DNA of 50,967 bases, taken from Planctomycetaceae bacterium (GTDB lineage: Bacteria; Planctomycetota; Planctomycetia; Planctomycetales; Planctomycetaceae). The translations under genes and the position numbers were made by a program. How positions within the stretch are numbered: position 1 is the first letter of the stretch; every line of letters starts with the position of its first letter. This document shows, piece after piece, positions 3,395 through 19,760 of the stretch. The stretch covers positions 1-50,967 of the forward strand of contig DASYAR010000143.1 in the NCBI GenBank assembly GCA_036501235.1, in the 5' to 3' direction. The notes beneath the pieces are model-generated. The model was not told the origin of the DNA. It worked only from the letters and a program-made list of their open reading frames with translations, and ran no database searches.

Positions 3395-4615
3395 CTACTT
3401 CAGGCAGTCGAAGGGTGCGAACGATCGACCCAGAATCGCGATCGGATCGACCGCCAGCCAGTTCTGGAGGATTGCGGCGTAGATCTCGCGGAAGTCGACC
3501 TGCATTTTGAGGTCGCCCATATCCAGTTCGGCCAGCGACGGATGCCCGTTGAGAACGCCGCCGCGCACGGGGGTTCCCGCCAGGAGGACGGGGCCTGCCG
3601 CGCCGTGATCGGTGCCGGCGGACGCATTTTCCTCCACGCGCCGGCCGAACTCGCTGAACGCCAGCACGACGATTCGCTCGTCGAGTTTGGCGGCCTGCAT
3701 GTCGCTCAGAAACGCCTTGAGTGCCGTGGTGAATTCTCGCAACAGTTGGCCGTGCGGGAAGCCTTGGGCGGAATGCGTGTCGTAGCCCGATTGCGACGCA
3801 TAAAAGAGGCGCGTGCCGCCTCCCAGTTTCAACAGCTTGGAGATCAGCCGCAGCTTCTGTCCGAGTTTCGAGGTTGGATAACCGTCGTTCGCGCCGGCCT
3901 GCGCCGACGGCGAGTCGCTGAATTGCCTCGCCGCGGTGTATGACTGGTCGACCGATCGCTGAACGAACGCCGCCAGATCGTTCGCTGCGTCGGTCGGCAC
4001 ATTCTTCGGCCCCGCGTTCGAGTTGACGGCGGAGGCCAGCCTGAGGTCGTTTTCGTTCTCGAGCGACAGGGCCTGCGAGCGCCGCCCGCGGAGAGCGACG
4101 GACGGGGCTTCGGCCCCGACATAAACCGAGCCGGACGAAGCGACGTCGGGCTTCGACCATGTATCGGCCGTTCTGCCGAGCCAGCCGATGCCGTCGTGAT
4201 CGTCGCTGGCAAGGCGGCCGTGATGCCAAATCGCCATGCTCTCGAAGTGCGACCGGTTCGGGTTGGGATAACCGACTCCCTGCACGACCGCCAGCCGTCC
4301 CGCCTCAAACAGTTCCGCCGCCGGCTTCATTTGCGGATGCAATCCGACGGCCGCGTCGAGCTTCAGGACTTGCCGTGATTCGATCCGCAGCTCTTTGCGA
4401 TGCCTGGCGTACAGTTCATCGGCAAACGGCACGACCGTATTGAGGCCGTCGTTGCCACCGTCGAGCTGGATTACCACCAGCGTACGGTCGTCAGGCCTGG
4501 CGTCGGCCGCCCGGACCGACCGCGCCAGAAACGCCGGGACGAATGGGGACAGCGAGATGAGAACGGATTGTTTGAGGAACTGACGTCGCTGGAGATCAGT
4601 GATAAAGGTGTGCAT
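3395..4615 (-). CDS. DUF1501 domain protein (sulfatase/alkaline-phosphatase-like), Tat signal
   Basis: 406-aa ORF with the twin-arginine motif RRQFLK near the N-terminus. VVIQLDGGNDGLN and C-terminal GTDHG segments recalled as DUF1501. Lies downstream of a DUF1800 gene, the usual pairing. Confidence 0.8.
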   Translation of the reverse strand: MHTFITDLQRRQFLKQSVLISLSPFVPAFLARSVRAADARPDDRTLVVIQLDGGNDGLNTVVPFADELYARHRKELRIESRQVLKLDAAVGLHPQMKPAAELFEAGRLAVVQGVGYPNPNRSHFESMAIWHHGRLASDDHDGIGWLGRTADTWSKPDVASSGSVYVGAEAPSVALRGRRSQALSLENENDLRLASAVNSNAGPKNVPTDAANDLAAFVQRSVDQSYTAARQFSDSPSAQAGANDGYPTSKLGQKLRLISKLLKLGGGTRLFYASQSGYDTHSAQGFPHGQLLREFTTALKAFLSDMQAAKLDERIVVLAFSEFGRRVEENASAGTDHGAAGPVLLAGTPVRGGVLNGHPSLAELDMGDLKMQVDFREIYAAILQNWLAVDPIAILGRSFAPFDCLK

Positions 4616-4826: not shown

Positions 4827-4835
4827 TGTTGCCGG

Positions 4836-4866: not shown

Positions 4867-4875
4867 CCCTCTTCT

Positions 4876-6234
4876 TCAATGCAAATGTGCCTGCGGACAA
4901 GTCAATAACGCCAGCAGCGACCTGCTGAGCGGCGATTGGTCCTCCTGCGCGGGCCGCTCGGTTGGCGGCACGTTGTCGAGCACGCGGCCGTACAACAATC
5001 GTGACAGAAAATTTGCGGCATCCGCGACCGACTTCGCCCCGACGTGCCGGGCAGTGAGCTGGTCGAGATCGGGGGGACGTGCCGGGTTGTTCAACTCCCC
5101 CGCCACGAGCGCCGCCATGCAGTTCGATCGCGCGAGAATGGCCCGTGTCGAGAGCCAGGCGCGGCCACCCGGCCAGCCGCCGACATTGGGGGGATAGAAC
5201 AAGTCCTGCTCCATCCGGCGGAGCCACTCGGCCAACACGATCGTGCTGGGGGGATCGCGCCAGCATTCCAGCGCCCGCAGCGGACCGACGACGAACGACA
5301 CAGGATCGCACACCCGGCTCGCCAGGTTGGGCCTCGAGAAGAATAATTCCGAGCGCAGAATCGTCTCGACTCCCCAGCGCATGTCGAGCTCGTGCCGGCG
5401 CAGGCCGTCAGCCAGTTCGTCGAGCGCCGGCTTGTCGGCCACACGTTCGCCGCAGAATTCGGCACAGAGCCGCCAGGCCAGCCGCTGCGAAGTCGCCGGT
5501 TGTGCCAGCAAAATCTGCACCAGCTCAGATCCATTCCAGTTGCCGGTGCGGCCAAGGATCGACTTTTCGGAATCGTCGTGCGCCGCTGGCTGTTCGAAGA
5601 ATTCTCCCTGACGAACCGTCCAGCCGGAGAGCGCGCGGGCCGCCTGTTGGACGTCAGCCTCCGCATAATGACCAATGCCGAGCGTGAACAACTCCATCAG
5701 CTCGCGAGCCAGATTTTCATTGGGGTGCTCTTTGCGATTGGCCGGCGCATCGAGCCACTTGAGAAGCGCCGGATCGCGGATCATCGCCGCGAGCAGTTCG
5801 CCGAACCGCGATAGGGCGTGCTGCCTGAGCAGCTCGTTCTGGCGCTTCATGAGCCGCAGGTCGTCGACCTTCAGGTTGCTGGTGGCAAAGTGATTGTGCC
5901 ACATCAGCGTCAGGCGCTCCTGGAGCGGATGGGGCGAAAACAGGCAGCGATACAGCCACCACGCCTTGAGCCGCTCGGCACTCCCCGAATCGACCGCCGC
6001 CTGGCCGATGATCGCGGCGAGCGATTCGAACCCTTCCGGCACCCCTTCGAGCCGCGCCTGCCCATCAATGAGCCGGGTCACGGCGGCTTCCGGCCCGTCG
6101 CGCAGATCGCGCTCGATTTCGCCCCATGTGGCGGCGAACGCGGCCCGGCGATGCAGGTGCACGACCCGCTCGATATTCCAGGGGGCCGCGTCAGTCGGTT
6201 TGTAGGGGGACCAATAAGACATGGCACAAATCAA
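4876..6234 (-). CDS. DUF1800 family protein
   Basis: 452-aa ORF containing WHNHFATSN, recalled as the hallmark DUF1800 motif. An alternative in-frame ATG lies at 6222 (MSYW...). Confidence 0.75.
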   Translation of the reverse strand: MICAMSYWSPYKPTDAAPWNIERVVHLHRRAAFAATWGEIERDLRDGPEAAVTRLIDGQARLEGVPEGFESLAAIIGQAAVDSGSAERLKAWWLYRCLFSPHPLQERLTLMWHNHFATSNLKVDDLRLMKRQNELLRQHALSRFGELLAAMIRDPALLKWLDAPANRKEHPNENLARELMELFTLGIGHYAEADVQQAARALSGWTVRQGEFFEQPAAHDDSEKSILGRTGNWNGSELVQILLAQPATSQRLAWRLCAEFCGERVADKPALDELADGLRRHELDMRWGVETILRSELFFSRPNLASRVCDPVSFVVGPLRALECWRDPPSTIVLAEWLRRMEQDLFYPPNVGGWPGGRAWLSTRAILARSNCMAALVAGELNNPARPPDLDQLTARHVGAKSVADAANFLSRLLYGRVLDNVPPTERPAQEDQSPLSRSLLALLTCPQAHLH

Positions 6235-6295: not shown

Positions 6296-9200
6296 TTATT
6301 CATCCTTCTGGGGCGCCACGATGATCTTCCCCAAATCCAGCGTCTTCCCCGATTCGGCCACGAACTCTTTCCGCACGACGACCTTTCCGTCATTATGGGT
6401 CACGATGCGGTAGCGTCCGCCGGGAATCAGTGCGGGAAAAGTTATGCGGCCTTCGGCATCGCTCTTAGGGCCTTCCCGATAATTCGTGCGGTCGATATTG
6501 ACGACGTATTCCGCGTCGGCCGCCAATGCGACGAGGCGCATGGCCGACGAGCCGAATCGGTGCGGGCCTGGCGCGACGACAAATTCGAAATCAGGCTGCA
6601 CATCGGGAATCGGCTTGCCGAGAGAATCTGCAAACGTCGCGACAGCCTCGCCGCAGGGTTCGAGCACGACGGTCGGCGATTGATCGCCCGCCTTGAAAAC
6701 CACCGTCGCTCCGAGACGATTCTTGGGATCCAGGAAGTGCACCGGATATTCGCGGCTTTCCCCCAATCCGGACAGTTCGAATCGCCCACCCAGCGCCTCA
6801 ATGGGAAAGCCACGCCAGGTCAGCTCCGAGGAATGGATGTTGAGCCGCGAGATGAGCAGCGCCTTCTCGACCGGCTCATCGGCAGAATTGGTAATTCGAC
6901 CAGAAATCGTGACGCCGCGGTGCAATGTGAGCGTCAGGTCGAGTGGATCTGAGTTTGGCTTGGGGTTGATGCGCTGCATGGCATGCGCGTAATTCCGTTC
7001 GCCCCCCGGCAGACCGCGCTCCAGTTGCCGCGATCCAAATTCGTGGGATACGAATTGCTTGCCGGGGCCGTTTGCCAGCAGCGTTCCCGGTCCCGGCAAC
7101 ACGGCGATCTCGAACGCGCCGTCCATTCCCGAGAGTTGAATCCCCTGCCAGCCCGTGACGATGTCATCAGCGACGTTGGGGTTGTTCCTGGTCTCGGGCA
7201 CATATTGAACTGCCACGCCGGCAATTGGATTTGTCGTTCCGGATTCCACAACACGACCCCGAACGAGAACGCCGCGAGGCAATGAGACATCGACCTGCTT
7301 CACCAGGGCGCCGTCTCTGTGCCTGATGTCGCGAATCTCCCGAATCAGATAGGGAACGCCGTCGGGTGGGTAGGCCGTGATCCCAAATCGGACACCTGGG
7401 AGCGGGTTAATTCGATACCGGCCTCGGGCGTCCGCCTTCCCGGCCAACGAAATCATGGAACCGCCGAACTGCTGCTGGCTGGCCCAGATCGTCAGCCGGG
7501 CGTGAGGCGCCGGCTCACCGGTGTCTTCGAATCGCACAACCCCCTCGAAAAGCTGGGCCGGCGCCAGAGGCAGCACTGCCTCTTCACCCGGTTTGAAATT
7601 TCTGACAAGCGAGCGATAAGTCCCGTCATTTGTCGAGCGTTCTTCCGAAAAACCGGTGTTGATCGAAATCCACTGGGGAGCAATCCGATCGGTTCCTTCG
7701 ACGTCGAGATAGACGCCGTGATCGGCTGGGATGCCACGGATCTCGAACGCGCCCTGCGGATCGGCGGTCACGAGCGGAGGCCATGCCTGCGGAGGTTTTT
7801 CGAGTTTTTGATAACCCACGCTTTCAGCAGCTTCACTGCGAGCTTCCGCCGCCGACCGCGAAATGACGGAACCGATCGACACTCGCACGCCTCCGGCCGG
7901 TTGTCCTTCGATGTCGATAAAGCGGGCGCGGATCACCTGCTCAGCCGGTAACTCCAGCGCCACGTCGACGTCGTGCGCGTCCGGATCAAGTCGCCGCCAC
8001 GCCAGCCCAGAGCCTTCGCTCCTGGCAATGATGTGCGCTCGCGAATACGCCTTGGATGAAACATCTGCGAGTTTGATTTCGAAACGGCCGCCGTCATGGG
8101 TCGTCACTTCCGCCAACACATGGCTCCTCGAGCTCAGATCGCCACCCCGTTCCGGCTGGATTCTCGAACCGATGATCGCGACGTTCGCCTTCACGGCCGG
8201 CTTGCCGTCGGGACCGATGATGTGGCCGTGGATAGCCGTGATGGTGCCTTCCGAGTTCGCGGTGGATTTGGATTTGTCCGCCGCAGGAGACGGAGGACTC
8301 GGCCCAGCCGACCCTCTCGCGGCTACCGCGGAGCCGCGCCCGTCAGGAAGCGGTGTGGGGCGATCGCTTCTTGCCTGGCGCGGCTCTGGGGGTGATGCAG
8401 CTTTGTCTGAGCGCGGTGTCTCGGTACCCTTATCGGCAGCCCTCTGCGGCGATTGTAAGATCGTGGGGGCCGCTGGCGGACGGGTGCCGGGGTCGGCCGT
8501 GCCGGGGTTGCCTGTGGTCAGACGCACATCGCCCAAATCTTTAGTTTCGCCCGGTTCGACGTCGAATGGTCCGGAACGATACTGCTCAAACGGCGTGGCG
8601 ACACGCTCGACGATCCCTTCAAACAACAGGAGGTACTCGCAGCCGAGAAGCAGGCCGTCAAACCGGAACCGCCCTTCTTTGTCGAGATCGCACTTTCCCA
8701 GTTGCCTGCGGGTGCCATCCAGCCCATCCAGACGGGCCATCAGTACTAATTTTCCACCAGTCTTGGGGTCCACTGCCGGGGCCACAATTCGGCCGGTGAC
8801 AGTCGAGCACGGTTCGAGTGTGATCTTCATCTCGCGTGGTCCGTCGGGCTGGAATTCCACCGTTGCGACTTTGCCGAGCTGTTTTTCGACATGGTGAATC
8901 AGAAGAATGCGCTTGTCTCCGGGACCCATCGTGGGGACGTCAAATGACGATCCCTGGGTGCGCGTCGGTTCGTCAGCGGGCAGCCGCCGATTTCCGCGCA
9001 CGCTGAAACCTGAAAGCGGCTGGCCTTCCCGGTCGACGACTGACACGCGTAGCGACTCGCCGGGATCCAATTCGACATCGCAGGTGAATGATTCTGCGGA
9101 CTCCGGAACATTGATTTCCTTCAGACTGTGATACATGCGCATGCTGCCCGGCTGCGCTCGCCACACCGTCTGGGGCAACATGCCCGCCGGGCCCATTCGT

Positions 9201-12200
9201 CCCGGTATGAGTCCGCCCCTGTCAGCCGGATCCAGTTTCTCGCGCCCAGTCCCCAGGCGGTACGATTGGGCGTGCGGTGAATTGACCGATGCCGCAACCA
9301 GGGCGCGCCCCGGAAGGCCGAGCACGCGATACGTGCCGTCAGGATCGACGCGGTAGTTCGTCCATCCCGTTCTCATTCCGCTGGGACCGAACTCGGCCGT
9401 AAGTTTTTGCGCGAATTCATTGGTGCGATAGGGCGTCCAGTGGACCACCGCCGAGACCGGTTGCCCGGTCGCCTTGTCGGCCACGCGGCCGGTGATCCAG
9501 ATACCCCGATGCAGTCCGATTTCCAGCGGGACCGGATCCAGCTTGGCGTCCACAGCAACGGTGGCCTGCCGACTAAAGTAGGGCTGGTCAGTTGGGGGCA
9601 CGATCATGATCAGATTTCCTTCCCCCAGCGGCATGCCGCTCAACTGAAATCGACCGTCTTTATCGGTGAAAGTATCGATCACGATCGATCCGAAGAGTGG
9701 CGATCCCGCGAAACGCCAATTGAAAATCCGAATGCCAGGCATCGGCTTTCCCGTCTCGGCGTCGCGCACAGTGCCCGTGACGGGACGCGAGGGGAGCGCG
9801 ACAAACTCGATTTCTGCCCCATACAACCGCCGCGCGAGTTTCGCCGCGTTGGGAGCACGCTGATCCATTTCCTGCATGACTGTTGACGCCCCGGGCCGGG
9901 TGACGATCGAGCCTTCACCATACGCGACGTTCGGTGCGGTGATGGAAAATTCCGCATAGCGCTCGCGACCGACCCCCGCCAAGCGAAACCTGCCCTGGTC
10001 GTCGGTTATCGCCGCGGGTAGAGGGATGCCGTCAAAGTCCGGCAGAAAGGTCATCCAGTCGTAGATTGCCATTGGGCGAATTTGGCCGCCGGCGACCGCT
10101 TTGAGGAAACCCGACAGATCGCCATCCTTTGGGGCGCGCAAGTTGCTTACCGCAATTTTGACGTTCCTGACCGGCCGTCCTTCCGGATCGAGAATTCGCC
10201 CAGTGACCGGGAGATCGTCACGCGCAAGCTCCAACATGACGTCTTCTTCTGACGGCAATTCATCCAACCGCTTCCATACCGGTCCGAAGTTGTCGCCGAA
10301 GGCGACGATGGTCGTCATCGAATCGCTCAGCGATAGGCCCCACGCGGCGAGCTCCAATTTCACCCTGCTGAACTCAATTTCGAAAGATCCGTCGGCCCGG
10401 CTTGTCGCTTCAGCCACCGGCACGTTCTTGACCCCGGTAGAAATGCCACCATACCACCCCACAACCCAGATTCTCGCCCCCGCAAACGGCTTGCCGTCCG
10501 GATCGACGACGCGGCCGCGGATCGTTCGCGACGACTGCGTACTCAGTGGGGGCTTCGTGGCTGGCTTGCCCGCCTCATTCTGCTGTGGCAGTTGTCGACC
10601 CTGCGGCACGAAAACCACATCGTCCAGGTCGAGGTCCTGGCCGGGTTTCAGCGTCTGTTGTTCCTTCGTCAATTTTGCATTTAAGGGCTTTCCATCCAGT
10701 CGAAGGATCAGGTGGAATGGCTCGCCGGGGACGAGATTTGTAATCCGGAACCGGCCGTCTTTGTCCGTCGCAGGAGCTGGCTTGCCCGTATTCAGAAACC
10801 GCTGGAATTCCTGCAGGACTTGCAAGCCGAATTCCGCGCTGCCAATCGGATCTCCCGATTCATCTACGGCCCGGCCCCAGATCGCGGCCGATTTTCCCAG
10901 CGTGAGCCGGACGGGCGAGGCCTCTTCACCGGTCAGCGTCACCGAACCGGCCAGTCCACGGTCCGGGTGCAGGGCGATGACCTGGCGCGGCCGATCGGAG
11001 CCCAGAGCGAAGATGGTCGTGCTCGCTTCCGTCACCTGCCTTGCCTGAAATCCCTGCCCATCGGCGAGACCGGACACGGCAAGCCCGGTGACCGGTTGTC
11101 CAACGTCGTCAACGAACTCCAGATCGACCGACTTGCCCCGATCGAGCTTCAGGTCGACGGAATACGGCCCGCCATCTTCAGAGAAGTTGACATACTTCAC
11201 CAGGTGATAGCGCATCAGCCCCATTTGTCCGATGGCTGTGGCAAAATACCGGCCGCCAAATTGACTGTCCTGTGGTTTGATCTGTGGGACGTCTTCGTCG
11301 CTGATGGCCCCACACCGAAAGATCGGCCCGGATTCAATCCGTGAGTTCGCTTCGACCGCCAATACGCCGCGGCCCGGCATGGCCGCGAATCGGAAATGGC
11401 CCTCGTCGTCCGCATATCCGATGATTCCGCCAGAATTACTCCCTTCGTATCCGGGTTTCTGGACAAACTCATTGCCCGGCAAGGGAAGGAACGTGATCGC
11501 GCCCCGGACGCCCCCGCCGGTCAATGGGTCCACGACCCGCCCGCTGACGACGATGCCGTTCTTCAATTCAATGTCGACCGTCTTGAGTCCTTCATCCCCA
11601 TTCGGCGAGAGGCGCACCATGCTCGGCAGCAGATCGCCGTGTCCGCTCATCGCAAACCTGACTGAGAGCTGGCGTCCGCGCGGCAACCCGCTGAGGCGAT
11701 AGCGGCCGTCGGCGTCGGTGGCAGTGCGCGTGAACGTCGTGCCCATGGGCGACGCGCCGACGGTCAGATCGGCGACCGGTTTCCCGCCGGCTGCGGTGAC
11801 CCGTCCCTCGATCGTCAGGCCCGGAACGCCGACGTGCGTGAACTCGGGGCCGACAAGCAGATCGGGCGCGCGGCCACCAAACACGTCGCGACGCGGCTGA
11901 TTGTAGGGGACCGCGTCGAGTCCCTGGCGGTTCGCGACCAGCACGGTCGTTGTCGCAAAATCGCCTGCCGAAATCTCGATCGCGCACAGGCGCTCGGCGG
12001 CGACGCCGTGCAGCACAATCCGTCCCTCGTCGTCGCTGACTGCGCCAAACGAATCCGGCAATCCGCCCGCCGCGTGTCGAGCGCCCGTGCGACCACCAAA
12101 TGTTTGTTTCTGGCGTTCGGCCAGAATCGCATCCAGCGAATTCCCCGTCTCAGGCGCCAGCAGAGATCGAATGGCGATCTTGGCGCCAGCCACCGGCCTG

Positions 12201-15200
12201 GCTTCCGCGTCGATCATCCGCCCCCGGATGACCTGTTCGGGGTAAAGAACTATTTCCGCCTGCGGGATCTCGCCCTGGTTGGAGATGTTGAACCATTCCA
12301 CACCATAATCGCGATGCTGGGCAATCAGAGATATTTCCCTCCAGGCCGGGAAGTCACTTTCCAAAATCTCGGCGGCAAATCGTCCCTCGGCATCGGTCGT
12401 GGCCTTGGGGTTGAGTTTCCATTCATTCTGTAATTGCGGTTGTTTGTCGGTCATCACCGGCACAGACAGCGCGACGCCAGCAATCGGCTTACCCGCCGCA
12501 TCGACGACGCGACCGCGGACCGTTCGCGACGACTGAGTACTCAGTACTGAGTACTCAGTACCGAGTGAAGATTTCACATTCCCATTCCCCGTGGCCCGAA
12601 TATCCGCTTTCTCCGTATTCGCAGCAGGCGAATTTGTCTTCCCCCCGTTCTCAGTGGAAACCCTTTTCTTCCCCCCGTCCACGGGGGGATCGAGGGGGGG
12701 CTTCTCGTTAGTCGTCGGTTTCACCGATTCCGCAGGCTTCCCGGAATCGAGCTTGAGCACCAGGTCGCCCAGGTTCTTTGTCTGGCCCGGTTCAGCCGTG
12801 ACATCAGAAAACACCGGCCCCTGCCGCGACCCCTTCAGCCGCCTCTCGGTGAAAAATCCCGGTCGGAAATTCAAGTAGGCGGAGTACTTCAAGCCGGGGA
12901 CGATACCCTTCAGCTCGAAGCGGCCGTCGGAATCGGTCTTCAAATTGATCTGCAAGACGCCGTGCTCCAAGTCGGCTGCCGATGGCTGGCCCCTCAGAAA
13001 AACCGTGTACCGCGAGTCTGAGATACTGACTTGGGGGAACGGCGCGTTCCCATCGTCTGCGTCAAGCACGCGCCCGACCAGAGTCGCCGCTGGTTGCAGA
13101 GTGATCGCCAGGTCTTTCGGCGGCTCGCCCGAGAGGTCGCGATAGCCCACGAGGTTCCGCTCCTGATGGAAAACGATCAGCCGCCGCGTCTCGGACGGGT
13201 TGTACGCGGTGACGTTGAAGCTTTCTCGTGTGTTCCTTTGCCAGACAACTCCCCGCCGGGCGCCAAAGACCAGGTAATTGATCAACGGCTGACCATCGGG
13301 CGCGAACACACGCGCCTGAAACTCGCTGCCGGTGCTGCGCAGCGCGAGATTAACGGTCGACTCATTGTCTTCCGGCCGCGGATTGATCGGCGCCAGCAGA
13401 CTATGAGCGGATGCAATGCAATAAGTCGGCCAGGTCTCAAATACAATCGAATTTCCTCCGGTCGCTTGCCTCGGACAGTCGATTCCGTCGGCCCCGACAC
13501 CGTCGGGAAATTCCGTTCCCGCCCGCAGCGCGAGAATTCCCTGGCCCGGCAACACGGGTATTTCGAAGCGGCCGTCGGCATCCGGGTGAATTCCGTTCTG
13601 CGAATGACCCTCGTGCAGACTGTCGGACTCTGTCGCGTGCGGGTTCGTCTTATAGGCGAAGTATTGGAGATTGCCGCGCACCGGTTTTCCTGTCGTTTCG
13701 TCGATCGCCCGGCCGCGAACGAGCACGCCGGCCGTGAGCGAAATGTCTCGCACGACGGTGGGGGCCGCCGCGGTCGTCGTCAGGTGCACGCCCCCGGGCA
13801 GGTGGCGCGATCGTGCGGGGGGAGTGATCAGCAGGTCGTTGACACCCACCGGCAGTCCCTCCAGGCGATATTTCCCATCAGTGTCGGTGACGACTCCTTT
13901 CCATTGGCCGCTCGATTCCACGCCCACTCCGGCCAGCGGCTGGCCCGTTTTGAAATCGGTGACGCGCCCCGTGACGGGGATCGACGGGCCGCTGACGAGA
14001 GTGAATTCATGGGGGTGATAGGTAAACGCCAGCGACGCGTGGGGAACGGGGCTGTCCAGGCCCAATTTGACCGTTTCCCCGGCGCGCGTCCGGACTCGTT
14101 CCTCGGATGTTTCGATTCCCGGGCCGCTGATCAGGAGCTCGGCGATCCGCTCGCGGCCAATTCCGTGCAACGTGAACCGGCCGTCTTCACCCGTATGGAC
14201 CACAGGAATCAGCGGGGGACGCGATCCCGCGAACACATTGCCGTGCATAGTTGCTCTTCTGGCTGGCGCCGATCCCATACCGCCGCGGAAATTAAAGTTC
14301 ACCGTATGTCCGCGGGCAATCTGGCGCAAGTGCGGGGTCGTCGTCGACGTGTCGGCGTCCGGCTTCTTCGACGCGGCGTCCCAGGCATCGAGCGTGCCGT
14401 CTTTCCCTTCCCAGAATTCGAAGGCCTCGATCGTTGCGCCGGCGACGGGTTGGCCATCGGCGTTCAAGATCCTCCCCCGGATCGGGATGTCGTCACGGAC
14501 CAGCGTCAGGACGTTGGATTTCTTTCCCGGCGGGATCGCGAGCCGGTCACGTTGCCGATCGGGCAACTCGCTGGCAGGCCGCCCGCTCGTCTCGAAATGC
14601 ACCAGAGGGCGAAACGCAAAACCGTAACCCGCTTTGACGGCCACCAATCCGGCATCGAACCAGAAACCCTGTCCGCCGTCAGCCCCGTCTACGAAGTCGC
14701 CGTTCTTCGCCGAGAATTCAAACTTGCCGCGTTCGTCGGTAAGCAGCGCAGGAAGGGCATCGGGCGCCGACGGGTTCTTGTGGAAATAGCTGACCGAAAC
14801 CTTCGCCCTGGCGACCGGTTGGCCCTGCTCGTCGACGACCGAGCCGGCGAAGGTAAACGTGCCGTCCGACTTCGCGCTCGATTTGGGAATATCCGCCGCA
14901 GGAGACTGAGTACTGAGTACTGAGTTCTCAGCACTCAGTGGGGGCGGCGTCGCTGCCGCCATGTTTTGTTTATTCGGCTGCGGCAATTGCTGATTCGGCG
15001 GTGCAAAGACGACGTCACCCAGATCGACTTCCTGACCTGGTTTCTGCGGCTGCTGTTCCGCGGTGAGTTTCGCCGTCAGCAGTTTGCCGTCAACGGACAC
15101 TCTCAGCTCGATTGGTTCACCGGGGATGAGATTGTCGAATCGAAACCGGCCGTCGGCGCCGGTTTTCTGCTGAGGCTTTCCGGTATTCTCGAATTTCTGC

Positions 15201-18200
15201 AACTGGAACGTCGCTTGAGAGAACGTCTCGCAAGCGGTCTCAGCGATCGGTGCTCCCGATTTGTCGACGGCCCGACCGCGGATCGCAGCAGCTTTGTCCA
15301 ACATCATTCGAATGGGGGAAGGCTCATTGCCGGTCACAGTCAGCAAACCGGCCAGCCCGTGCAGACTGTGCCGGACGATGAGTTTGCGAGGAGACTCGGC
15401 AGCCAGCGCATAGAGTGTGGTGCGCGACTCGTCGAGGCGGGTCGGAAAAGAAAAGTCGTCGATGCCGACGATGACGGCGCCGGTCACAGGCTGACCGTCG
15501 CCGTCGACGATCTCGAGCTCAGCCGTTTTGCCCCGGTCGAGCGTGATTTCGATCGGCTCTGCCTGGGCGCCTTCCGCGAGATCGACGTATTGGGCGATAT
15601 TCGACAGGTCCAATGAGGAAAAGCCGCCTCCCGCCGCCGGGAAGGCCTTGCCAAAGGGGCGTTCGGTCAGTTTCAGTTTCGCACTATCTGCCTTGCTCAC
15701 AACCCCCATTCGGAACGGAGAAACCATGTGCCCGCCGATGCGGATCGTGGGATTGACCTGCACCATCACGGCGCCGGGGCCGGGGATCACCGGAACTCGG
15801 AATTCACCACCGCCGTTTGCGCGAACCTGGCGGGCGCCACGCAGCGCGTCTTTGTAGCGCGGCTGATTGGCGAATTCATTTCCGAGCATCGGCACAAACC
15901 GCACGAACGCCGGCACCCCGTTGCCCGTCAGCGGATCGATCACACGGCCGCTTAACAGAGTGCCTTCGCCGACTGAGCCCAGTTTCAATTCGACATCGAC
16001 CGTTTTCTGCGCATCGTCGGCGGTTGTCGAAATGGTGACCTCATGCCTCAACACCTCGGTTTGACGCTCTGGGCCGCCGAAGCTCATGCGGACTTCGCGG
16101 CCGCGCGGCACTCCGGTCAGCCGATACCGCCCCTCGGCGTCCGTTGTGGTAACCCCGACGACCGACAAATTCGCGCTGGCGCGAACGATCAGATCGGCCG
16201 CCGGCTTGCCATTCGCCGTGGCGCGGCCCTCGATCGTCAATCCGGGAATCCCCACATGAGTAAAGTCGGGACCGACGAGTCGGACGGGGGCCTGACGATT
16301 TCCCGCAGCGGGCGGATTGTAAGGAGCCGTGTCGAGGCCTTGGCGATTCACCACAACCACCCGCTCGCGGACAAAGCGATCATCGTTGATTTGGATCTGG
16401 CAGGCGCCGTCGGCGGCGATGCCGTGGATCACAAACCGGCCCTCGGCATCGCTGATTGGAAGGTACGACGTGGGCATAAATCGCAACGTCAGAAAGCGGT
16501 TCTCGACAGGCGGGCCGGGCGAACCCTTTTTCCGCTCTTCCAGATACTCATCGAGCAGATTGGGCTGCCGAGGCGAGAGACGCGCACCAATGAATACTTT
16601 GGCGCCGGCGACCGGCCGACCCTCGGCGTCGATCATGCGCCCGGGAATCGGCTGTTCGGGCTTCAGGACAATCTCCGCGGCCGGCACGTCGCCCCGTTCT
16701 GGAATGTCGAATAGATCGAGCGCATACCCCGGATGTTCGGCGACCAGAGGCATTCGCCGTCCCTCTTCCAGCTCCAAGGCAAATCGCCCGTCGGCATCGG
16801 TTTTGGTTTGGGCGAGAAGCGGCCCATCGGCCTCCTCGGCGGCAATAACTCGGTTTGGGCCGAATTTCAGCACCTGCAGTGAAACGTCCGCGAGCGGCTT
16901 GCCCGCCGCATCGACGACGCGGCCACGGACGGACCGCGACTTTCCAGCTTCCGCCGCCCCCACCCCGGGGCTTTGCGTGGACGGAGAGGGGGATTCAGGC
17001 TTTCCGCCATCCGGGGAGGAAGCCTCTTTCTTCTCCCCATTCTCGGCAGGAACATTTTCCTTACCGCCGTCCACGGGGGGATCGAGGGGGGGATTCGCAT
17101 CCGGGTTATCGACCATGGGGAGCAGAGAATCGGGGTTGTCCTGAGCAGACTCCTGGGTACTCAGTACTGAGTACTCAGGACTTGACTCCGCGGCCGTTTC
17201 GGTTGGGACATCGTTTTGGGCTTCTTCAGCGACAACCACAAGTGGTGCTTCCTCTTTGCCGGTCGACGGCCGCAGCGCCGCGGCGAGCGCGATGAGCGGG
17301 ACGATGACTGCCACCAGAACGAGCGCCGTGCCGCGGGTGAGTCGCTGCGACAGGGGCCTCCGGAAATCGAGGATCGAGTCGATGCGCGTTTCGACGCTGG
17401 AGCAGCGGGCCATCGACACGCCGCCGATCACCAGGCGGCCGCGATGGGCGCGGGCCGTCGCGGCGACTTCCAGAAGGTGCCGGGCGTAGCTGGCCCGGTC
17501 GCCTGTCGTCCCGATCGCCGCGTCGTCGCAGGCGGCCTCGGCCAGGCTCGCCAGCCGCCGGCGAAGCCACCACGCCAGGGGATGGAACCAGTACAGGCAG
17601 CGATTCAGCTCGGCCAGCAAAGCCAGAGCGCAATCACCTCGCTCGGCGTGCGTTCGTTCGTGAATCAGGACGACGTGCAGTTTTTCGACCGACCAGTTAA
17701 TCCAATCCGGCGGCAGCAGGATCCGCGGGTGAAAGACACCCAAGGTGAACGGAACGCGAATCGTCGGACACTCCAGAATCGGCACATCGCGCCGCGAGGG
17801 AGCGAACGTGTTCGCATTCGTCACCAGCGCCGGCAACCTGGCCGGGTCGATCAGCCGCGAGGCGCGTCGCAGTTTCTGCGCCATCCACAATCCGGCCAGC
17901 AGGCGCAACGTCAACAGGGCGGCACCCAGGATCCACACGCTCCAGAACACCAGCGGGATTCGCGCCATGAGGCTTTTCCAGACAGACGGCTCGACGGCCG
18001 CCGCGATCGCGCTCCTCTCGGCCGCTTCCGGCTCGACCGGTTTCGTCTCCGCGACGGCTGCCGGCTCGGCCGACGGATTCTCGGTGAGCGCGTCGTCGGA
18101 TGTGCCATACGATTGTGGCGGACCGCTGTGAAATTCACCCGGCCAGCGGCCCCGAGCGCCCGGCCAATCGGGTCGTCCGGCCAGGGCCCGGTCGTAACCG

Positions 18201-18595
18201 TTCAGCGGCGACTCACTTTCGAGCGGCGCCGGCTGCCCGTCAGAAACTGGCTCGGACGTGGTGCTGGTTGTTTCCGCTGCGGGCTGGTCGTCCGAATGGG
18301 ACTTGTCGGAGGTCTGGGACCTGTCAGTTCCAAGTGCCTGGCTGCCACCTGTGCGCTGCAACTCGGCGAACCATTCGGGATCAACCGAAAACGGCAACCG
18401 CAAGGTGGGAATGACTTGCGTCAGCACGGGCAAGAGAAGCATGCCGCACAGCACGCCCATCCACGCCCGATGCCGCAGGTTGCTGTCGCGGACCCGCAGC
18501 AGGGAGAGGCCTGCCGCCGCGACCAGCGCCACGAGCGCCGCTTTTACCGAGGCATCGACAAACACAATCAGCCACTGGATGGAAAGGTCTGACAT
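6296..18595 (-). CDS. Giant (4,099 aa) BlaR1/MecR1-type M56 metallopeptidase-domain membrane protein fused to ~3,650 aa of repeated carboxypeptidase-regulatory-like (Ig-like beta-sandwich) modules
   Basis: Single uninterrupted 12.3-kb ORF. N-terminal hydrophobic helices and the zinc motif H-E-R-T-H (aa 312-316, nt 17648..17662) sit in the context VVLIHERTHAERGDC...YWFHPLAWW, typical of M56. The rest is built from dozens of G-R-V/I-x-D-x-x-G-x-P ... D-x-x-G-R-F/Y units. A BlaI-type repressor gene lies upstream on the same strand. Confidence 0.85.
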   Translation of the reverse strand: MSDLSIQWLIVFVDASVKAALVALVAAAGLSLLRVRDSNLRHRAWMGVLCGMLLLPVLTQVIPTLRLPFSVDPEWFAELQRTGGSQALGTDRSQTSDKSHSDDQPAAETTSTTSEPVSDGQPAPLESESPLNGYDRALAGRPDWPGARGRWPGEFHSGPPQSYGTSDDALTENPSAEPAAVAETKPVEPEAAERSAIAAAVEPSVWKSLMARIPLVFWSVWILGAALLTLRLLAGLWMAQKLRRASRLIDPARLPALVTNANTFAPSRRDVPILECPTIRVPFTLGVFHPRILLPPDWINWSVEKLHVVLIHERTHAERGDCALALLAELNRCLYWFHPLAWWLRRRLASLAEAACDDAAIGTTGDRASYARHLLEVAATARAHRGRLVIGGVSMARCSSVETRIDSILDFRRPLSQRLTRGTALVLVAVIVPLIALAAALRPSTGKEEAPLVVVAEEAQNDVPTETAAESSPEYSVLSTQESAQDNPDSLLPMVDNPDANPPLDPPVDGGKENVPAENGEKKEASSPDGGKPESPSPSTQSPGVGAAEAGKSRSVRGRVVDAAGKPLADVSLQVLKFGPNRVIAAEEADGPLLAQTKTDADGRFALELEEGRRMPLVAEHPGYALDLFDIPERGDVPAAEIVLKPEQPIPGRMIDAEGRPVAGAKVFIGARLSPRQPNLLDEYLEERKKGSPGPPVENRFLTLRFMPTSYLPISDAEGRFVIHGIAADGACQIQINDDRFVRERVVVVNRQGLDTAPYNPPAAGNRQAPVRLVGPDFTHVGIPGLTIEGRATANGKPAADLIVRASANLSVVGVTTTDAEGRYRLTGVPRGREVRMSFGGPERQTEVLRHEVTISTTADDAQKTVDVELKLGSVGEGTLLSGRVIDPLTGNGVPAFVRFVPMLGNEFANQPRYKDALRGARQVRANGGGEFRVPVIPGPGAVMVQVNPTIRIGGHMVSPFRMGVVSKADSAKLKLTERPFGKAFPAAGGGFSSLDLSNIAQYVDLAEGAQAEPIEITLDRGKTAELEIVDGDGQPVTGAVIVGIDDFSFPTRLDESRTTLYALAAESPRKLIVRHSLHGLAGLLTVTGNEPSPIRMMLDKAAAIRGRAVDKSGAPIAETACETFSQATFQLQKFENTGKPQQKTGADGRFRFDNLIPGEPIELRVSVDGKLLTAKLTAEQQPQKPGQEVDLGDVVFAPPNQQLPQPNKQNMAAATPPPLSAENSVLSTQSPAADIPKSSAKSDGTFTFAGSVVDEQGQPVARAKVSVSYFHKNPSAPDALPALLTDERGKFEFSAKNGDFVDGADGGQGFWFDAGLVAVKAGYGFAFRPLVHFETSGRPASELPDRQRDRLAIPPGKKSNVLTLVRDDIPIRGRILNADGQPVAGATIEAFEFWEGKDGTLDAWDAASKKPDADTSTTTPHLRQIARGHTVNFNFRGGMGSAPARRATMHGNVFAGSRPPLIPVVHTGEDGRFTLHGIGRERIAELLISGPGIETSEERVRTRAGETVKLGLDSPVPHASLAFTYHPHEFTLVSGPSIPVTGRVTDFKTGQPLAGVGVESSGQWKGVVTDTDGKYRLEGLPVGVNDLLITPPARSRHLPGGVHLTTTAAAPTVVRDISLTAGVLVRGRAIDETTGKPVRGNLQYFAYKTNPHATESDSLHEGHSQNGIHPDADGRFEIPVLPGQGILALRAGTEFPDGVGADGIDCPRQATGGNSIVFETWPTYCIASAHSLLAPINPRPEDNESTVNLALRSTGSEFQARVFAPDGQPLINYLVFGARRGVVWQRNTRESFNVTAYNPSETRRLIVFHQERNLVGYRDLSGEPPKDLAITLQPAATLVGRVLDADDGNAPFPQVSISDSRYTVFLRGQPSAADLEHGVLQINLKTDSDGRFELKGIVPGLKYSAYLNFRPGFFTERRLKGSRQGPVFSDVTAEPGQTKNLGDLVLKLDSGKPAESVKPTTNEKPPLDPPVDGGKKRVSTENGGKTNSPAANTEKADIRATGNGNVKSSLGTEYSVLSTQSSRTVRGRVVDAAGKPIAGVALSVPVMTDKQPQLQNEWKLNPKATTDAEGRFAAEILESDFPAWREISLIAQHRDYGVEWFNISNQGEIPQAEIVLYPEQVIRGRMIDAEARPVAGAKIAIRSLLAPETGNSLDAILAERQKQTFGGRTGARHAAGGLPDSFGAVSDDEGRIVLHGVAAERLCAIEISAGDFATTTVLVANRQGLDAVPYNQPRRDVFGGRAPDLLVGPEFTHVGVPGLTIEGRVTAAGGKPVADLTVGASPMGTTFTRTATDADGRYRLSGLPRGRQLSVRFAMSGHGDLLPSMVRLSPNGDEGLKTVDIELKNGIVVSGRVVDPLTGGGVRGAITFLPLPGNEFVQKPGYEGSNSGGIIGYADDEGHFRFAAMPGRGVLAVEANSRIESGPIFRCGAISDEDVPQIKPQDSQFGGRYFATAIGQMGLMRYHLVKYVNFSEDGGPYSVDLKLDRGKSVDLEFVDDVGQPVTGLAVSGLADGQGFQARQVTEASTTIFALGSDRPRQVIALHPDRGLAGSVTLTGEEASPVRLTLGKSAAIWGRAVDESGDPIGSAEFGLQVLQEFQRFLNTGKPAPATDKDGRFRITNLVPGEPFHLILRLDGKPLNAKLTKEQQTLKPGQDLDLDDVVFVPQGRQLPQQNEAGKPATKPPLSTQSSRTIRGRVVDPDGKPFAGARIWVVGWYGGISTGVKNVPVAEATSRADGSFEIEFSRVKLELAAWGLSLSDSMTTIVAFGDNFGPVWKRLDELPSEEDVMLELARDDLPVTGRILDPEGRPVRNVKIAVSNLRAPKDGDLSGFLKAVAGGQIRPMAIYDWMTFLPDFDGIPLPAAITDDQGRFRLAGVGRERYAEFSITAPNVAYGEGSIVTRPGASTVMQEMDQRAPNAAKLARRLYGAEIEFVALPSRPVTGTVRDAETGKPMPGIRIFNWRFAGSPLFGSIVIDTFTDKDGRFQLSGMPLGEGNLIMIVPPTDQPYFSRQATVAVDAKLDPVPLEIGLHRGIWITGRVADKATGQPVSAVVHWTPYRTNEFAQKLTAEFGPSGMRTGWTNYRVDPDGTYRVLGLPGRALVAASVNSPHAQSYRLGTGREKLDPADRGGLIPGRMGPAGMLPQTVWRAQPGSMRMYHSLKEINVPESAESFTCDVELDPGESLRVSVVDREGQPLSGFSVRGNRRLPADEPTRTQGSSFDVPTMGPGDKRILLIHHVEKQLGKVATVEFQPDGPREMKITLEPCSTVTGRIVAPAVDPKTGGKLVLMARLDGLDGTRRQLGKCDLDKEGRFRFDGLLLGCEYLLLFEGIVERVATPFEQYRSGPFDVEPGETKDLGDVRLTTGNPGTADPGTRPPAAPTILQSPQRAADKGTETPRSDKAASPPEPRQARSDRPTPLPDGRGSAVAARGSAGPSPPSPAADKSKSTANSEGTITAIHGHIIGPDGKPAVKANVAIIGSRIQPERGGDLSSRSHVLAEVTTHDGGRFEIKLADVSSKAYSRAHIIARSEGSGLAWRRLDPDAHDVDVALELPAEQVIRARFIDIEGQPAGGVRVSIGSVISRSAAEARSEAAESVGYQKLEKPPQAWPPLVTADPQGAFEIRGIPADHGVYLDVEGTDRIAPQWISINTGFSEERSTNDGTYRSLVRNFKPGEEAVLPLAPAQLFEGVVRFEDTGEPAPHARLTIWASQQQFGGSMISLAGKADARGRYRINPLPGVRFGITAYPPDGVPYLIREIRDIRHRDGALVKQVDVSLPRGVLVRGRVVESGTTNPIAGVAVQYVPETRNNPNVADDIVTGWQGIQLSGMDGAFEIAVLPGPGTLLANGPGKQFVSHEFGSRQLERGLPGGERNYAHAMQRINPKPNSDPLDLTLTLHRGVTISGRITNSADEPVEKALLISRLNIHSSELTWRGFPIEALGGRFELSGLGESREYPVHFLDPKNRLGATVVFKAGDQSPTVVLEPCGEAVATFADSLGKPIPDVQPDFEFVVAPGPHRFGSSAMRLVALAADAEYVVNIDRTNYREGPKSDAEGRITFPALIPGGRYRIVTHNDGKVVVRKEFVAESGKTLDLGKIIVAPQKDE
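12532..12559. repeat. 28-nt perfect palindrome of AGTACT-containing heptads inside the giant CDS
   Basis: actgagtactcagtactgagtactcagt is its own reverse complement. It encodes ...EYSVLSTQ... at the B1/A2 module junction. Confidence 0.85.
14905..14940. repeat. Heptad (TACTGAG) tandem repeat inside the giant CDS
   Basis: actgagtactgagtactgagttctcagcactcagtg encodes ...LSAENSVLSTQS... at the A1/B1 junction. Confidence 0.8.
17152..17179. repeat. Near-perfect 28-nt palindrome of the same heptads inside the giant CDS
   Basis: cctgggtactcagtactgagtactcagg has an 18-nt perfect core at 17157..17174. It encodes ...PEYSVLSTQES... in the linker between the M56 region and module A1. Confidence 0.8.
17273..18595 (-). 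other. M56 (BlaR1-like) transmembrane protease region of the giant protein (aa 1-~441)
   Basis: Predicted helices at about aa 8-33, 45-63, 211-237 and 421-441, with HERTH at aa 312-316. An acidic, Ser/Pro/Glu-rich low-complexity insert of ~130 aa (aa ~75-200) lies between helices 2 and 3. Boundaries estimated by eye. Confidence 0.7.
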
Positions 18596-18617
18596 GTTCG
18601 GTTCCTGATCGTCACGA

Positions 18618-18658
18618 CCCCTGCCGGTTTACCCGGCAGGTGAAGAAGATTGCCTGGC
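18618..18658 (+). repeat. Hairpin repeat (family R4), copy 1
   Basis: cccctgccggtttacccggcaggtgaagaagattgcctggct. Stem CCTGCCGG/CCGGCAGG with a 5-nt loop. Confidence 0.75.
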
Positions 18659-18687
18659 TAGGTGCGACGCCACCCCAAGTCCTAAGG

Positions 18688-18729
18688 CCCCTGCCGGCTC
18701 GTCCGGCAGGTGAATCAGATTCTGTGGCT
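18688..18729 (+). repeat. Hairpin repeat (family R4), copy 2
   Basis: cccctgccggctcgtccggcaggtgaatcagattctgtggct is a direct repeat of copy 1, 70 nt downstream, with the same 8-bp stem. Confidence 0.75.
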
Positions 18730-18793
18730 GAAAGTCTCGATTTCACGGTTCATGTCTCTGATATTCCTGTCACCATTTTCTTCGTTCGTCTTT

Positions 18794-18824
18794 TATCCGC
18801 GCTGATCCGCGTCCATCCGCGGCT
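18794..18824 (+). repeat. ATCCGCG-family repeat (family R2)
   Basis: tatccgcgctgatccgcgtccatccgcggct. A related tccgtgtgaatctgtggcc variant follows at ~18861..18880, and a partial hairpin copy agccgcg-tttatt-cgcggct lies at 6257..6276. Confidence 0.7.
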
Positions 18825-18928
18825 AAATTTCTCTCGTCCTGTTCGTCGTAAGCTGTGTTCTTCCGTGTGAATCTGTGGCCCACATCTTTTGTTCCGTTTG
18901 AACTCTGGAATGGCCCCTCCTGTATCGC

Positions 18929-19342
18929 CTATTTTTTGCTGCGGCCCGATTTCTTTTGTGTTGCATCAGCTTGTGAAATCCGCTCGGCCAGCTCGCGGAG
19001 CTTGTCGGGCGAGATCAAGTCGTCGTCGACCATTCCCACCAGCAGATTCTCGACCGACCCGGCGCAAAACCGGTCGACAATGCCGCGCACCTGCTGGGTG
19101 GCCACCGATTGCGGTTCGACTCGCGGCCGGTAAACGTATGTCCGGCCGTCGACGTCGTGCTCGACGTAGCCTTTATCTTCGAGCCGTCGCAGGATTGTGC
19201 GAACCGTCGAATCCTTGAGATCCTGAGTCCGCCGCAGCGCGGCCCGCACCTCGTCTGAAGTCAGCCGCTGGCGTTCCCACACCACCTGCATGACGGCGTT
19301 CTCCAGCACGCTCAGCCGGGGCCTGTCGTTCCTCTGCGCCAT
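18929..19342 (-). CDS. BlaI/MecI/CopY family winged-helix transcriptional repressor
   Basis: LSVLENAVMQVVWERQRLTSDEVRAAL...DSTVRTILRRLEDKGYVEHDVDGRTYVYRP matches the Penicillinase_R pattern. Preferred start is ATG 19342 (MAQRND...), preceded by GAAAGGA. The track start at 19408 is a TTG that is itself the TTGACA -35 box. Confidence 0.85.
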   Translation of the reverse strand: MAQRNDRPRLSVLENAVMQVVWERQRLTSDEVRAALRRTQDLKDSTVRTILRRLEDKGYVEHDVDGRTYVYRPRVEPQSVATQQVRGIVDRFCAGSVENLLVGMVDDDLISPDKLRELAERISQADATQKKSGRSKK

Positions 19343-19359
19343 CGCGTCATTCCTTTCGC

Positions 19360-19408
19360 TACAGAATGTAATGTTACAATATGTAACAACTGCGGCACGT
19401 TCTGTCAA
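19360..19408 (-). promoter_or_regulatory. Candidate blaI promoter with overlapping BlaI-type operator dyads
   Basis: On the minus strand, TTGACA (19408..19403) is followed by a 17-nt spacer and TACATA (19385..19380). Plus-strand dyads are GTTACA-ATA-TGTAAC (19373..19387, perfect) and TACA-GAA-TGTA (19360..19370). TACA/TGTA half-sites are the known BlaI/MecI operator signature. Confidence 0.5.
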
Positions 19409-19760
19409 TCATGCCGTATTCCAATTTCTTTCGCTACTGTCCGTGTTGTCGCTGCGCGACCCGGGTGCATCCGTGAATTGGGGGTATGCCTGTGAAGTAA
19501 CGCCGATGCTGGCAGCATCTGCCACGTGGGCGACGCTGCCAGTGTCGGCGTTTCTGGGCGCCACTCCATTTAACAGTTGCGCCCTGTGTTCGATCCGTTT
19601 TGAAATGCCTTATTGTCCGCCGCGCGGCGTATATAATGACAGGTGATTGGGCTGCAGAAATCGCGGGCAGGCGAATGTGTCTCCGGAGCGTGGGGCCGAA
19701 CCGTGCAGGGACCGAGTTGTTCACTCGCAGCTGCCAAATGAGAGGCAAATGCGATCGAGC

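Follow-up and report, generated by a model that had tools for sequence, protein, structure and literature searches.

What does a BlaR1-type membrane protease respond to when its penicillin-binding sensor is replaced by ~3,660 amino acids (aa) of β-sandwich domains? The question is raised by a locus in 50,967 nt of DNA from a Planctomycetaceae bacterium (contig DASYAR010000143.1, positions 1 to 50,967; the whole stretch is referred to here as the window), where a gene for a BlaI-type repressor is followed, on the same strand, by a 4,099-codon gene whose product begins with an M56 (BlaR1-like) protease domain. One-step transmembrane proteolytic signaling has its textbook example in BlaR1/BlaI, which is understood for β-lactams only. 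A first-pass annotation had read the two genes as a BlaI-type repressor paired with an M56 protease that carries a β-sandwich array in the place of a sensor, and this core reading is upheld here by Pfam matches, conserved residues, a BlaR1-like predicted fold, the presence of blaI upstream in nine of nine loci, an operator-like dyad, and the lack of a penicillin-binding protein (PBP) domain. We propose that the locus encodes an autoregulated BlaR1/BlaI-type transmembrane proteolytic switch that acts on a four-gene cassette and responds, through an array of five ~670-aa super-modules (SMs), to an extracytoplasmic cue other than a β-lactam, a reading to which we assign a probability of roughly 55%.

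Results

The N-terminal domain is an M56/BlaR1-type membrane metalloprotease

Peptidase_M56 (Pfam PF05569) matched aa 185 to 406 of the giant protein at E=1.2e-32, with 113.8 bits against a cut-off of 31, and hydropathy resolved four transmembrane (TM) helices (aa 9 to 31, 44 to 62, 215 to 233, and 423 to 441), the protease region lying between TM3 and TM4. In a comparison with PDB sequences, the HERTH motif, which the first-pass annotation had correctly located, aligned with HEYAH 201-205 of Staphylococcus aureus BlaR1, and E353AACD357 aligned with BlaR1 E242xxxD246; HExxH and ExxxD are the motifs named in the cryo-electron microscopy study of BlaR1 (PMC9834060). Homologs were retrieved with aa 1 to 1240 as the query. 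In an alignment of 48 relatives H312, H316, E353, and D357 are invariant, while E313 is conserved in at least 90%. An AlphaFold (AF2) model of aa 1 to 445, with a predicted local distance difference test score (pLDDT) of 77.6 and a predicted template modeling score (pTM) of 0.72, had S. aureus BlaR1 as each of its top six Foldseek matches against the PDB (8ext, 8exp, 8exq, 8exs, and 8exr), the best being 8exr_A (template modeling score [TM-score] of 0.63; root mean square deviation of 2.4 Å over 175 columns). The N-terminal domain is a true M56/BlaR1-type membrane metalloprotease.

The acidic low-complexity insert that had been noted between helices 2 and 3 is present, yet it is ~150 aa long (aa 63 to 214) and not ~130 aa. 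This TM2-TM3 loop is rich in P, S, T, A, and G and is predicted to be disordered, with pLDDT below 50 at aa 98 to 177. The relatives have HExxH at a median position of 272 and S. aureus BlaR1 has it at 201, so a long loop is a trait of the family. By analogy, it probably corresponds to the extracellular loop of BlaR1, which binds the sensor domain and has a role together with that domain in signaling (PMC9834060).

What follows TM4 is not a β-lactam sensor. The Pfam scan of the giant protein found no transpeptidase, PBP, or class D β-lactamase-like domain, and neither the cassette nor the scanned neighbors include a β-lactamase or PBP gene. The NCBIfam model blaR1_generic reached 73 bits against a cut-off of 400 and aligned only at model positions 88 to 326 of 585. 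Because the sensor domain and a full-length match are missing and there is no β-lactamase or PBP2a partner, the protein falls outside the equivalog of BlaR1/MecR1 β-lactam sensors. A true β-lactam-sensing BlaR1/MecR1 system, for which only the shared M56 and BlaI domains speak, has next to no probability in our estimate.

Five super-modules occupy the sensor position

From aa 442 to 4099, all Pfam matches were to β-sandwich families, led by CarboxypepD_reg (E=4.4e-96) and including transthyretin, Big, and SpaA models. The M56, Penicillinase_R, and CarboxypepD_reg families expected from the first-pass annotation were all found, the protease and the repressor well above cut-offs. That annotation had also described ~3,650 aa of Ig-like repeats with no recognizable catalytic domain in the sensor position; the extent and the lack of a catalytic domain stand, but self-comparison and a profile of 671 positions, built from 18 aligned segments, resolve the array into five complete copies of a ~670-aa SM instead of a uniform repeat. 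All five copies match the profile end to end, at 536 to 677 bits each, and are joined by low-complexity, disordered linkers rich in P, S, and T.

The AF2 model of SM1 (674 aa; pLDDT of 79.5, pTM of 0.68) is all-β, with ~6 to 7 sandwiches and a few short helices. Foldseek searches of the PDB with this model returned only generic multi-Ig arrays (CnaB, pilin, SdrD-B, TIE, usher, and α2-macroglobulin MG-like domains), with TM-scores of at most 0.15. Since these matches are no more than generic, we describe the SM as having no known global fold or catalytic domain, and a known fold or hidden domain within it was rejected on the same grounds.

The SMs differ in type according to their place in the array. 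The SMs that end other arrays share 45 to 59% identity with SM5, those that open them resemble SM2, and SM1 and SM3 are of one type. A recent tandem duplication was rejected as the origin of the array, as each SM is closer to SMs of other proteins than to its siblings, the exception being SM1 and SM3 (46% identity). Judged by these comparisons, the SMs are old paralogs that fall into anciently diverged subtypes with preferred array positions.

The super-module recurs on ECF sigma factors

With SM1 as the query against 1.84 billion representative proteins, the SM had 7,305 representative matches at E≤1e-3 and 371 at E≤1e-30. The M56 proteins retrieved carry one SM in 32 cases, two in 37, three in 15, four in 9, five in 4, and six in 2; these copy numbers were estimated from profile coverage and rounded, and the sample is biased toward high scores. 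Large relatives include proteins of 4,828, 4,580, 3,914, 3,712, and 3,688 aa. The size of 4,099 aa for which the protein had been called a giant sensor protease is therefore correct, although it is neither unique nor the largest: with SM numbers of ~1 to 6 and lengths of up to 4,828 aa among its relatives, "giant" marks a point on a continuum. When reference genomes were scanned with a mid-gene fragment, they gave a single weak Gemmataceae locus, at 28% identity, and no ortholog from a named culture.

A second architecture, ~950 to 980 aa long, consists of regions 2 and 4 of an extracytoplasmic function (ECF) sigma factor, one TM helix, and one SM (P0121, P0127, P0129, and P0132, from loci L131 to L133). 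These proteins would be membrane-tethered sigma factors with the same ectodomain. Planctomycete ECF factors with diverse C-terminal extensions are known (Pinto et al. 2020, PMC7671368). Its additional fusion to ECF sigma factors makes the SM a portable unit. That two unrelated heads, both of which control transcription, carry it as an exchangeable extracytoplasmic module is the strongest argument for regarding it as an input domain. Near the ECF-SM gene, locus L133 also has an ECF/zf-HC2 anti-sigma pair and a gene for an M50 site-2 protease.

The protease belongs to a conserved four-gene cassette

The locus had been read as a two-gene module; it comprises four genes instead. In all nine loci with readable flanks, blaI, the M56-(SM)n gene, and a DUF1800 gene follow one another in the same order and on one strand, and a DUF1501 gene comes after DUF1800 in all eight that extend far enough. 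Named among these loci are the window, L007, L002, L003, L008, L009, L010 (whose contig ends inside DUF1800), and L134; they carry 1, 2, 5, or ~6 SMs, and a distant M56 clade is included. No terminator-like sites were found between the genes of the cassette, which we infer to be cotranscribed.

The repressor matched Penicillinase_R (PF03965) over model positions 1 to 115 of 115, at E=4e-32 and with 111.4 bits against a cut-off of 22.6, so the annotated pairing of a co-oriented repressor and M56 gene holds. Among structures, it matched MecI (1sd6; E=2e-10 over aa 9 to 120) and BlaI (1sd4; E=2e-9). Since it scores below the allele-specific cut-offs of NCBIfam, it is a member of the family and not an ortholog of the clinical proteins. 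Its best NCBIfam match was CopY/TcrY, with 85.8 bits against an equivalog cut-off of 121.95. The signature of CopY is a C-terminal CxCxxxxCxC metal site, and the repressor has a single Cys, with none in its C-terminal tail; a CopY-type copper repressor was rejected on account of the low score and the absent cysteine motif.

Upstream of blaI, a perfect dyad, GTTACAataTGTAAC (equivalent to GTTACAATATGTAAC; GTTACA-N3-TGTAAC), adjoins a copy with two mismatches. The two dyads are located 31 to 45 nt before the blaI ATG and 15 nt past a TTGACA hexamer. No other match occurs in the 51-kb window, where chance alone would give 0.23. We take the dyad to be of the TACA/TGTA type of the staphylococcal BlaI and MecI operators. 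Six of nine related loci have exactly one copy of its strict form, GTTAC-N5-GTAAC, located −42 to −45 from blaI, and a one-mismatch form is present in two further loci of the nine; the distant L134 differs. TTGAC(A) precedes the dyad in most of the related loci, and since the dyad starts 15 nt downstream of TTGACA, it covers the place where a −10 element is expected. A strict promoter scan gave no site at the position of TTGACA. The arrangement suggests a promoter in front of blaI and, through predicted binding of BlaI to the dyads, autoregulation.

The 333-nt spacer between blaI and the M56 gene contains two repeats (18618-18659 and 18688-18729), each with an 8-bp GC-rich hairpin, CCTGCCGG-N5-CCGGCAGG, and no U-tract, a pattern found nowhere else in the window. 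Four related loci have spacers of only 48 to 113 nt; that of L005 measures 860 nt. A riboswitch or other known RNA in the spacer or the upstream region was rejected, there being no Rfam match at E≤1.

The giant ORF is intact and has a mosaic central segment

The giant open reading frame (ORF) starts with ATG and runs without an internal stop, on a window that is part of one 54-kb Joint Genome Institute (JGI) metagenome contig (sample 3300036780). Its derivation from a single metagenome contig, the short dispersed repeats of up to 77 nt within the gene, and the related nanopore-derived contig L005, on which a collinear homolog of at least 12 kb (40 to 70% identity) lies in frameshifted pieces that could reflect read errors or decay, would all suit an assembly artifact made of collapsed or chimeric repeats or a decaying pseudogene. 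A separate assembly (sample 3300036830), however, encodes an intact ortholog of 4,073 aa (P0080), which is 89.5% identical over its full length and likewise has five modules, and its neighbors match those of the window (cellulase, S9 peptidase, chorismate synthase, Rieske protein, blaI, giant gene, DUF1800, and DUF1501). Repeats inside the gene reach no more than 77 nt in length and 88% in identity, and the five sibling SMs share only 23 to 46% amino acid identity; nothing is therefore long enough for a mis-join, and all five SMs match their profile along its whole length. The ratio of nonsynonymous to synonymous divergence (dN/dS, or omega) between the two orthologs is 0.32 overall and below 1 in every computable 200-codon interval (range, 0.15 to 0.7), and at least 12 other M56 proteins exceed 3,000 aa. 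In view of the independent intact ortholog, the short repeats, and an omega below 1 along the whole gene, we rejected an artifact or pseudogene as highly improbable.

Comparison with locus L007 revealed a mosaic. The flanking genes are 97 to 100% identical, and the rest of the giant gene and all neighbors are 93 to 100% identical, with nucleotide identity of ~99 to 100% at aa 660 to 1400 and aa 2690 to 3450 of the giant gene. Between these parts, at aa ~1410 to 2610, nucleotide identity is mostly 54 to 87%, with sharp borders. These central ~1,200 codons show 60 to 86% amino acid identity, a synonymous divergence (dS) of 0.6 to 1.0, and an omega of 0.2 to 0.3, and the central 3.6 kb is thus a long-diverged allele that is still constrained. 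It was probably imported by recombination; alternatively, two coexisting alleles were resolved differently by the two assemblies. That near-identical strains differ by so sharp a replacement of the central modules suggests diversifying pressure on the array, which is compatible with the role of a sensor and with that of a surface protein.

The linkers also contain a perfect DNA palindrome of alternating heptamers, (AGTACTG/AGTACTC)n, at window positions 17148-17181, 14901-14948, 12528-12575, and 10530-10563 (degenerate), and in L005 at 11326-11352, 13617-13636, and 20830-20849; in frame it reads (S)TEYSVLSTQ. A 20-nt core of the palindrome was found in at least 120 unrelated metagenome stretches, most of them ~60% G+C, both inside long ORFs and in noncoding DNA. 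Because its sites are widespread within and outside ORFs, the palindrome looks like a dispersed repeat of this lineage whose in-frame presence the disordered linkers tolerate, much as with the Rickettsia palindromic elements; no published description of it was found. (E)YSVLSTQ as a protein-specific functional motif or a site of module swapping was rejected, since the peptide arises when a palindromic (AGTACTS)n repeat is read in frame. The borders of the divergent segment do not coincide with these linker repeats.

Layout of the locus

The features of the locus are collected in Table 1.

Table 1. Positions in the window of the cassette genes, their domains and motifs, and the candidate control elements
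Feature	Position	Strand	Basis or remark
blaI-like repressor gene, 137 aa	18929..19342	-	Winged helix, Penicillinase_R family; Pfam PF03965
M56-(SM)5 gene, 4,099 aa	6296..18595	-	ORF reading, Pfam, SM profile
M56 membrane metalloprotease domain, aa 1-445, four TM helices	17261..18595	-	Pfam, hydropathy, AF2
Acidic disordered TM2-TM3 loop, aa 63-214	17954..18409	-	Composition, pLDDT
HERTH, H312-E313-x-x-H316, zinc-binding and catalytic motif (aa 312-316)	17648..17662	-	Aligned to BlaR1 HEYAH 201-205
EAACD, E353-x-x-x-D357, gluzincin ExxxD; E353 is the third zinc ligand	17525..17539	-	Aligned to BlaR1 E242xxxD246
SM1, aa 552-1210	14966..16942	-	Profile positions 2-670 of 671, 633 bits
SM2, aa 1245-1960	12716..14863	-	Usual first-position type in other arrays
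SM3, aa 2022-2675	10571..12532	-	Same type as SM1 (46% identity)
SM4, aa 2688-3371	8483..10534	-	SM profile match
SM5, aa 3451-4099	6299..8245	-	Conserved terminal type
Hypervariable central segment, aa ~1410-2610	10766..14368	-	Divergent allele relative to otherwise near-identical ortholog
blaI-M56 spacer, 333 nt, two 42-nt hairpin-bearing direct repeats	18596..18928	-	
DUF1800 gene, 448 aa, 73 nt downstream of M56 gene	4876..6222	-	Pfam E=1.2e-98
DUF1501 gene, 406 aa, twin-arginine signal RRQFLK	3395..4615	-	Pfam E=6.9e-26; N terminus read directly
Two adjoining candidate operator dyads: perfect at 19373-19387, two-mismatch at 19358-19372	19358..19387	.	
TTGACA, −35-like hexamer	19403..19408	-	Read from sequence

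Upstream of the putative blaI promoter, positions 19760-19833 hold a noncoding 21-nt tandem repeat of 3.5 copies with the consensus CGCGTCTCAAAACCTGCCTGA. A sulfatase gene (1551-2996, plus strand) and a gene of the GH5 cellulase family (24484-25593, plus strand) lie near the cassette in the window, and another sulfatase gene (3605-5173) adjoins the cassette in L002; this may reflect the mere abundance of such genes in Pirellulales genomes. At 25802-28627, on the minus strand, a gene for an Hsp70-like protein (579 aa) is followed by one for an MshEN-domain protein, and the pair is likewise placed on the source contig.

Discussion

Relation to known systems

The closest characterized systems are BlaR1-BlaI and MecR1-MecI of S. 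aureus and Bacillus licheniformis. Like them, the locus described here pairs a four-helix M56 gluzincin with an HExxH...ExxxD site, whose predicted fold superposes on 8exr, with a co-oriented winged-helix Penicillinase_R repressor that has TACA/TGTA dyads in its own promoter, and in both a big extracytoplasmic domain follows TM4 and an extracellular loop precedes TM3. Their sensor, however, is an acyl-serine penicillin-binding domain of ~260 aa instead of five ~670-aa β-sandwich SMs, the disordered TM2-TM3 loop of ~150 aa sets the planctomycete protein apart, as does its failure to reach the blaR1 equivalog cut-off, blaI comes first in the gene order here, and the outputs would be DUF1800 and DUF1501 proteins in place of β-lactamase or PBP2a.

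Atypical pairs outside β-lactam resistance have precedents and are beginning to attract study. BlaI/BlaR of Mycobacterium tuberculosis, a BlaI-type repressor with an M56 protein, is not known to have a penicillin-binding sensor or to govern β-lactam resistance. A further pair that lacks such a sensor is PvmSR of Pseudomonas aeruginosa, again a BlaI-type repressor with an M56 protein, which is not in control of β-lactam resistance (bioRxiv 10.64898/2026.08.03.742534). For neither did we find a report of a multikilobase β-sandwich array or of a DUF1800/DUF1501 output, a distinction drawn from their descriptions only.

On the side of the ectodomain, the planctomycete ECF factors with C-terminal extensions (PMC7671368) include the ~950- to 980-aa subset with one copy of the same SM after a TM helix, but these have a sigma factor head in place of a protease with a separate repressor, a single SM in the examples seen, and no link to DUF1800 or DUF1501. 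M56-TonB_C proteins of Bacteroidota and Planctomycetota combine the same head with an exchangeable extracytoplasmic tail; in these and similar M56 fusions, several of them from the same phylum, the place of the SM array is taken by a TonB C-terminal domain, a WD40 propeller, HEAT repeats, thioredoxin, or PDZ-S41. An instance of the last adjoins a giant homolog on L004/L005 (3747-7206; L004 1023-4094), where a second, divergently oriented BlaI/M56 pair has an M56 protein ending in PDZ and S41 (tail-specific protease) domains, next to a Tn5-type transposase gene. Single domains of the SM are prealbumin/CnaB-like β-sandwiches, as in Gram-positive pilins and the B-repeats of MSCRAMM proteins (CnaB, SdrD-B, and the TIE protein) and in the MG domains of α2-macroglobulin. 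The array differs from all of these in giving no global match (TM-score of at most 0.15), in lacking a sortase signal, isopeptide motif, and thioester, and in being anchored by an N-terminal polytopic protease domain.

A model for the switch and its rivals

We propose the following model for the cassette. A BlaI dimer would occupy the tandem GTTACA-N3-TGTAAC dyads, which overlap the predicted blaI promoter, and thereby keep the whole cassette low. The M56 protein, if oriented like BlaR1, would cross the cytoplasmic membrane with four helices, so that its HExxH...ExxxD zinc site faces the cytoplasm and the ~150-aa loop and the five-SM array are periplasmic. An extracytoplasmic event on the array, for which the binding of a macromolecule or surface, strain, or the clipping of disordered linkers are candidates, may then be passed to the protease via TM4 and the loop. 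BlaR1 cuts BlaI directly (PMC9834060), and by analogy the protease is predicted to cleave its cognate BlaI, which would derepress the cassette. The output, as analogy and the invariant gene order suggest, would be more sensor together with the DUF1501/DUF1800 pair exported by twin-arginine translocation (Tat). In this scenario, the ~670-aa SM would be the input unit, portable, present in ~1 to 6 copies, and differentiated into position-preferring subtypes. Both the sensor role of the array and the cleavage of BlaI are predictions of this model.

Several observations weigh against this model. The staphylococcal cleavage dipeptide of BlaI and MecI, N101|F102 in the dimerization domain, aligns to G|M in the repressor, and cleavage therefore cannot be argued from conservation of the site. 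A second promoter or an attenuator could lie in the 333-nt spacer, where the two hairpins are found. The ECF-SM fusion genes are not adjacent to DUF1800 or DUF1501, for which reason a general link between the SM and these families was rejected, and a search of the literature found no experimental data on any member of the family and no paper on planctomycete M56 arrays. No ligand-binding pocket or conserved polar motif was found in the SM, whose invariant positions are mostly Gly and Pro. Further observations would also fit an array that is mainly structural, that is, a membrane-anchored periplasmic or surface fiber, an adhesin, or an envelope spacer; its M56 domain would then provide anchorage and housekeeping proteolysis, and BlaI would set the expression level, with no sensing involved. 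The SM fold resembles the pilin, CnaB, SdrD-B, and TIE domains typical of structural surface proteins, and Foldseek gave nothing beyond these and the usher and MG-like domains; the linkers are of the disordered P/S/T-rich kind; and a copy number of ~1 to 6, together with a hypervariable 3.6-kb central allele that differs between near-identical strains, as is common in surface-exposed proteins, is a hallmark of adhesins and surface antigens too. A structural array would, however, leave unexplained why the catalytic residues of the protease are invariant, why BlaI is paired with it in nine of nine loci, and why the SM recurs as the ectodomain of ECF sigma fusions, proteins with a regulatory and not a structural function. 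Furthermore, SM1 is predicted to be compact over 674 aa and not a string of beads, and no sortase, secretion, or outer membrane anchoring signal was seen. On balance, we consider a mainly structural array unlikely.

The array might instead be a bait or tripwire, its linkers or modules being clipped by extracellular or periplasmic proteases or by shear, so that loss of the ectodomain activates the M56 domain in the manner of site-1 cleavage in regulated intramembrane proteolysis or of BlaR1, from which signal peptidase sheds the sensor domain (PMC9834060). Long disordered linkers between the modules would lend themselves to this, more modules would make a bigger target, and α2-macroglobulin is among the weak structural matches, with MG-domain Pfam families present in some relatives. 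Yet the array lacks a thioester motif and a bait region and does not resemble α2-macroglobulin globally (TM-score of at most 0.1), and SM subtypes that diverged anciently and prefer certain positions point to specific roles rather than to generic bait. We regard a tripwire as distinctly improbable and retain the proteolytic switch as our preferred reading.

Significance

Databases already label such proteins "M56 family metallopeptidase"; no prior description was found of the SM, of its sharing with ECF sigma factors, or of the four-gene cassette. A literature search likewise found no functional account of the DUF1800/DUF1501 pair. The proteins form a large environmental family, with thousands of representatives, in which the same protease and repressor are combined with a modular, size-variable ectodomain and with a fixed pair of periplasmic partners, DUF1800 and Tat-exported DUF1501. 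Because a compact cassette, a predictable operator, and known catalytic residues come together here, the hypothesis is directly testable. The cassette also provides an entry point to DUF1800 and DUF1501 and to the long C-terminal extensions of planctomycete ECF sigma factors.

Going beyond the switch itself, we tentatively put forward a wider idea, which is possible though doubtful: the SM may be an unrecognized extracytoplasmic sensor fold of Planctomycetota, used on M56/BlaI switches and on tethered ECF switches, which are unrelated to each other. In the M56 cassette, arrays of ~1 to 6 positionally specialized modules would act as a long, hypervariable, periplasm-spanning antenna that couples a macromolecular, particulate, or mechanical cue to the Tat-exported DUF1501/DUF1800 proteins. 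If true, this would offer the first functional handle on DUF1501 and DUF1800, two domains of unknown function that rank with the most abundant of their kind in planctomycete genomes, and BlaR1-type proteolytic signaling would be a general means of envelope sensing that extends beyond antibiotics.

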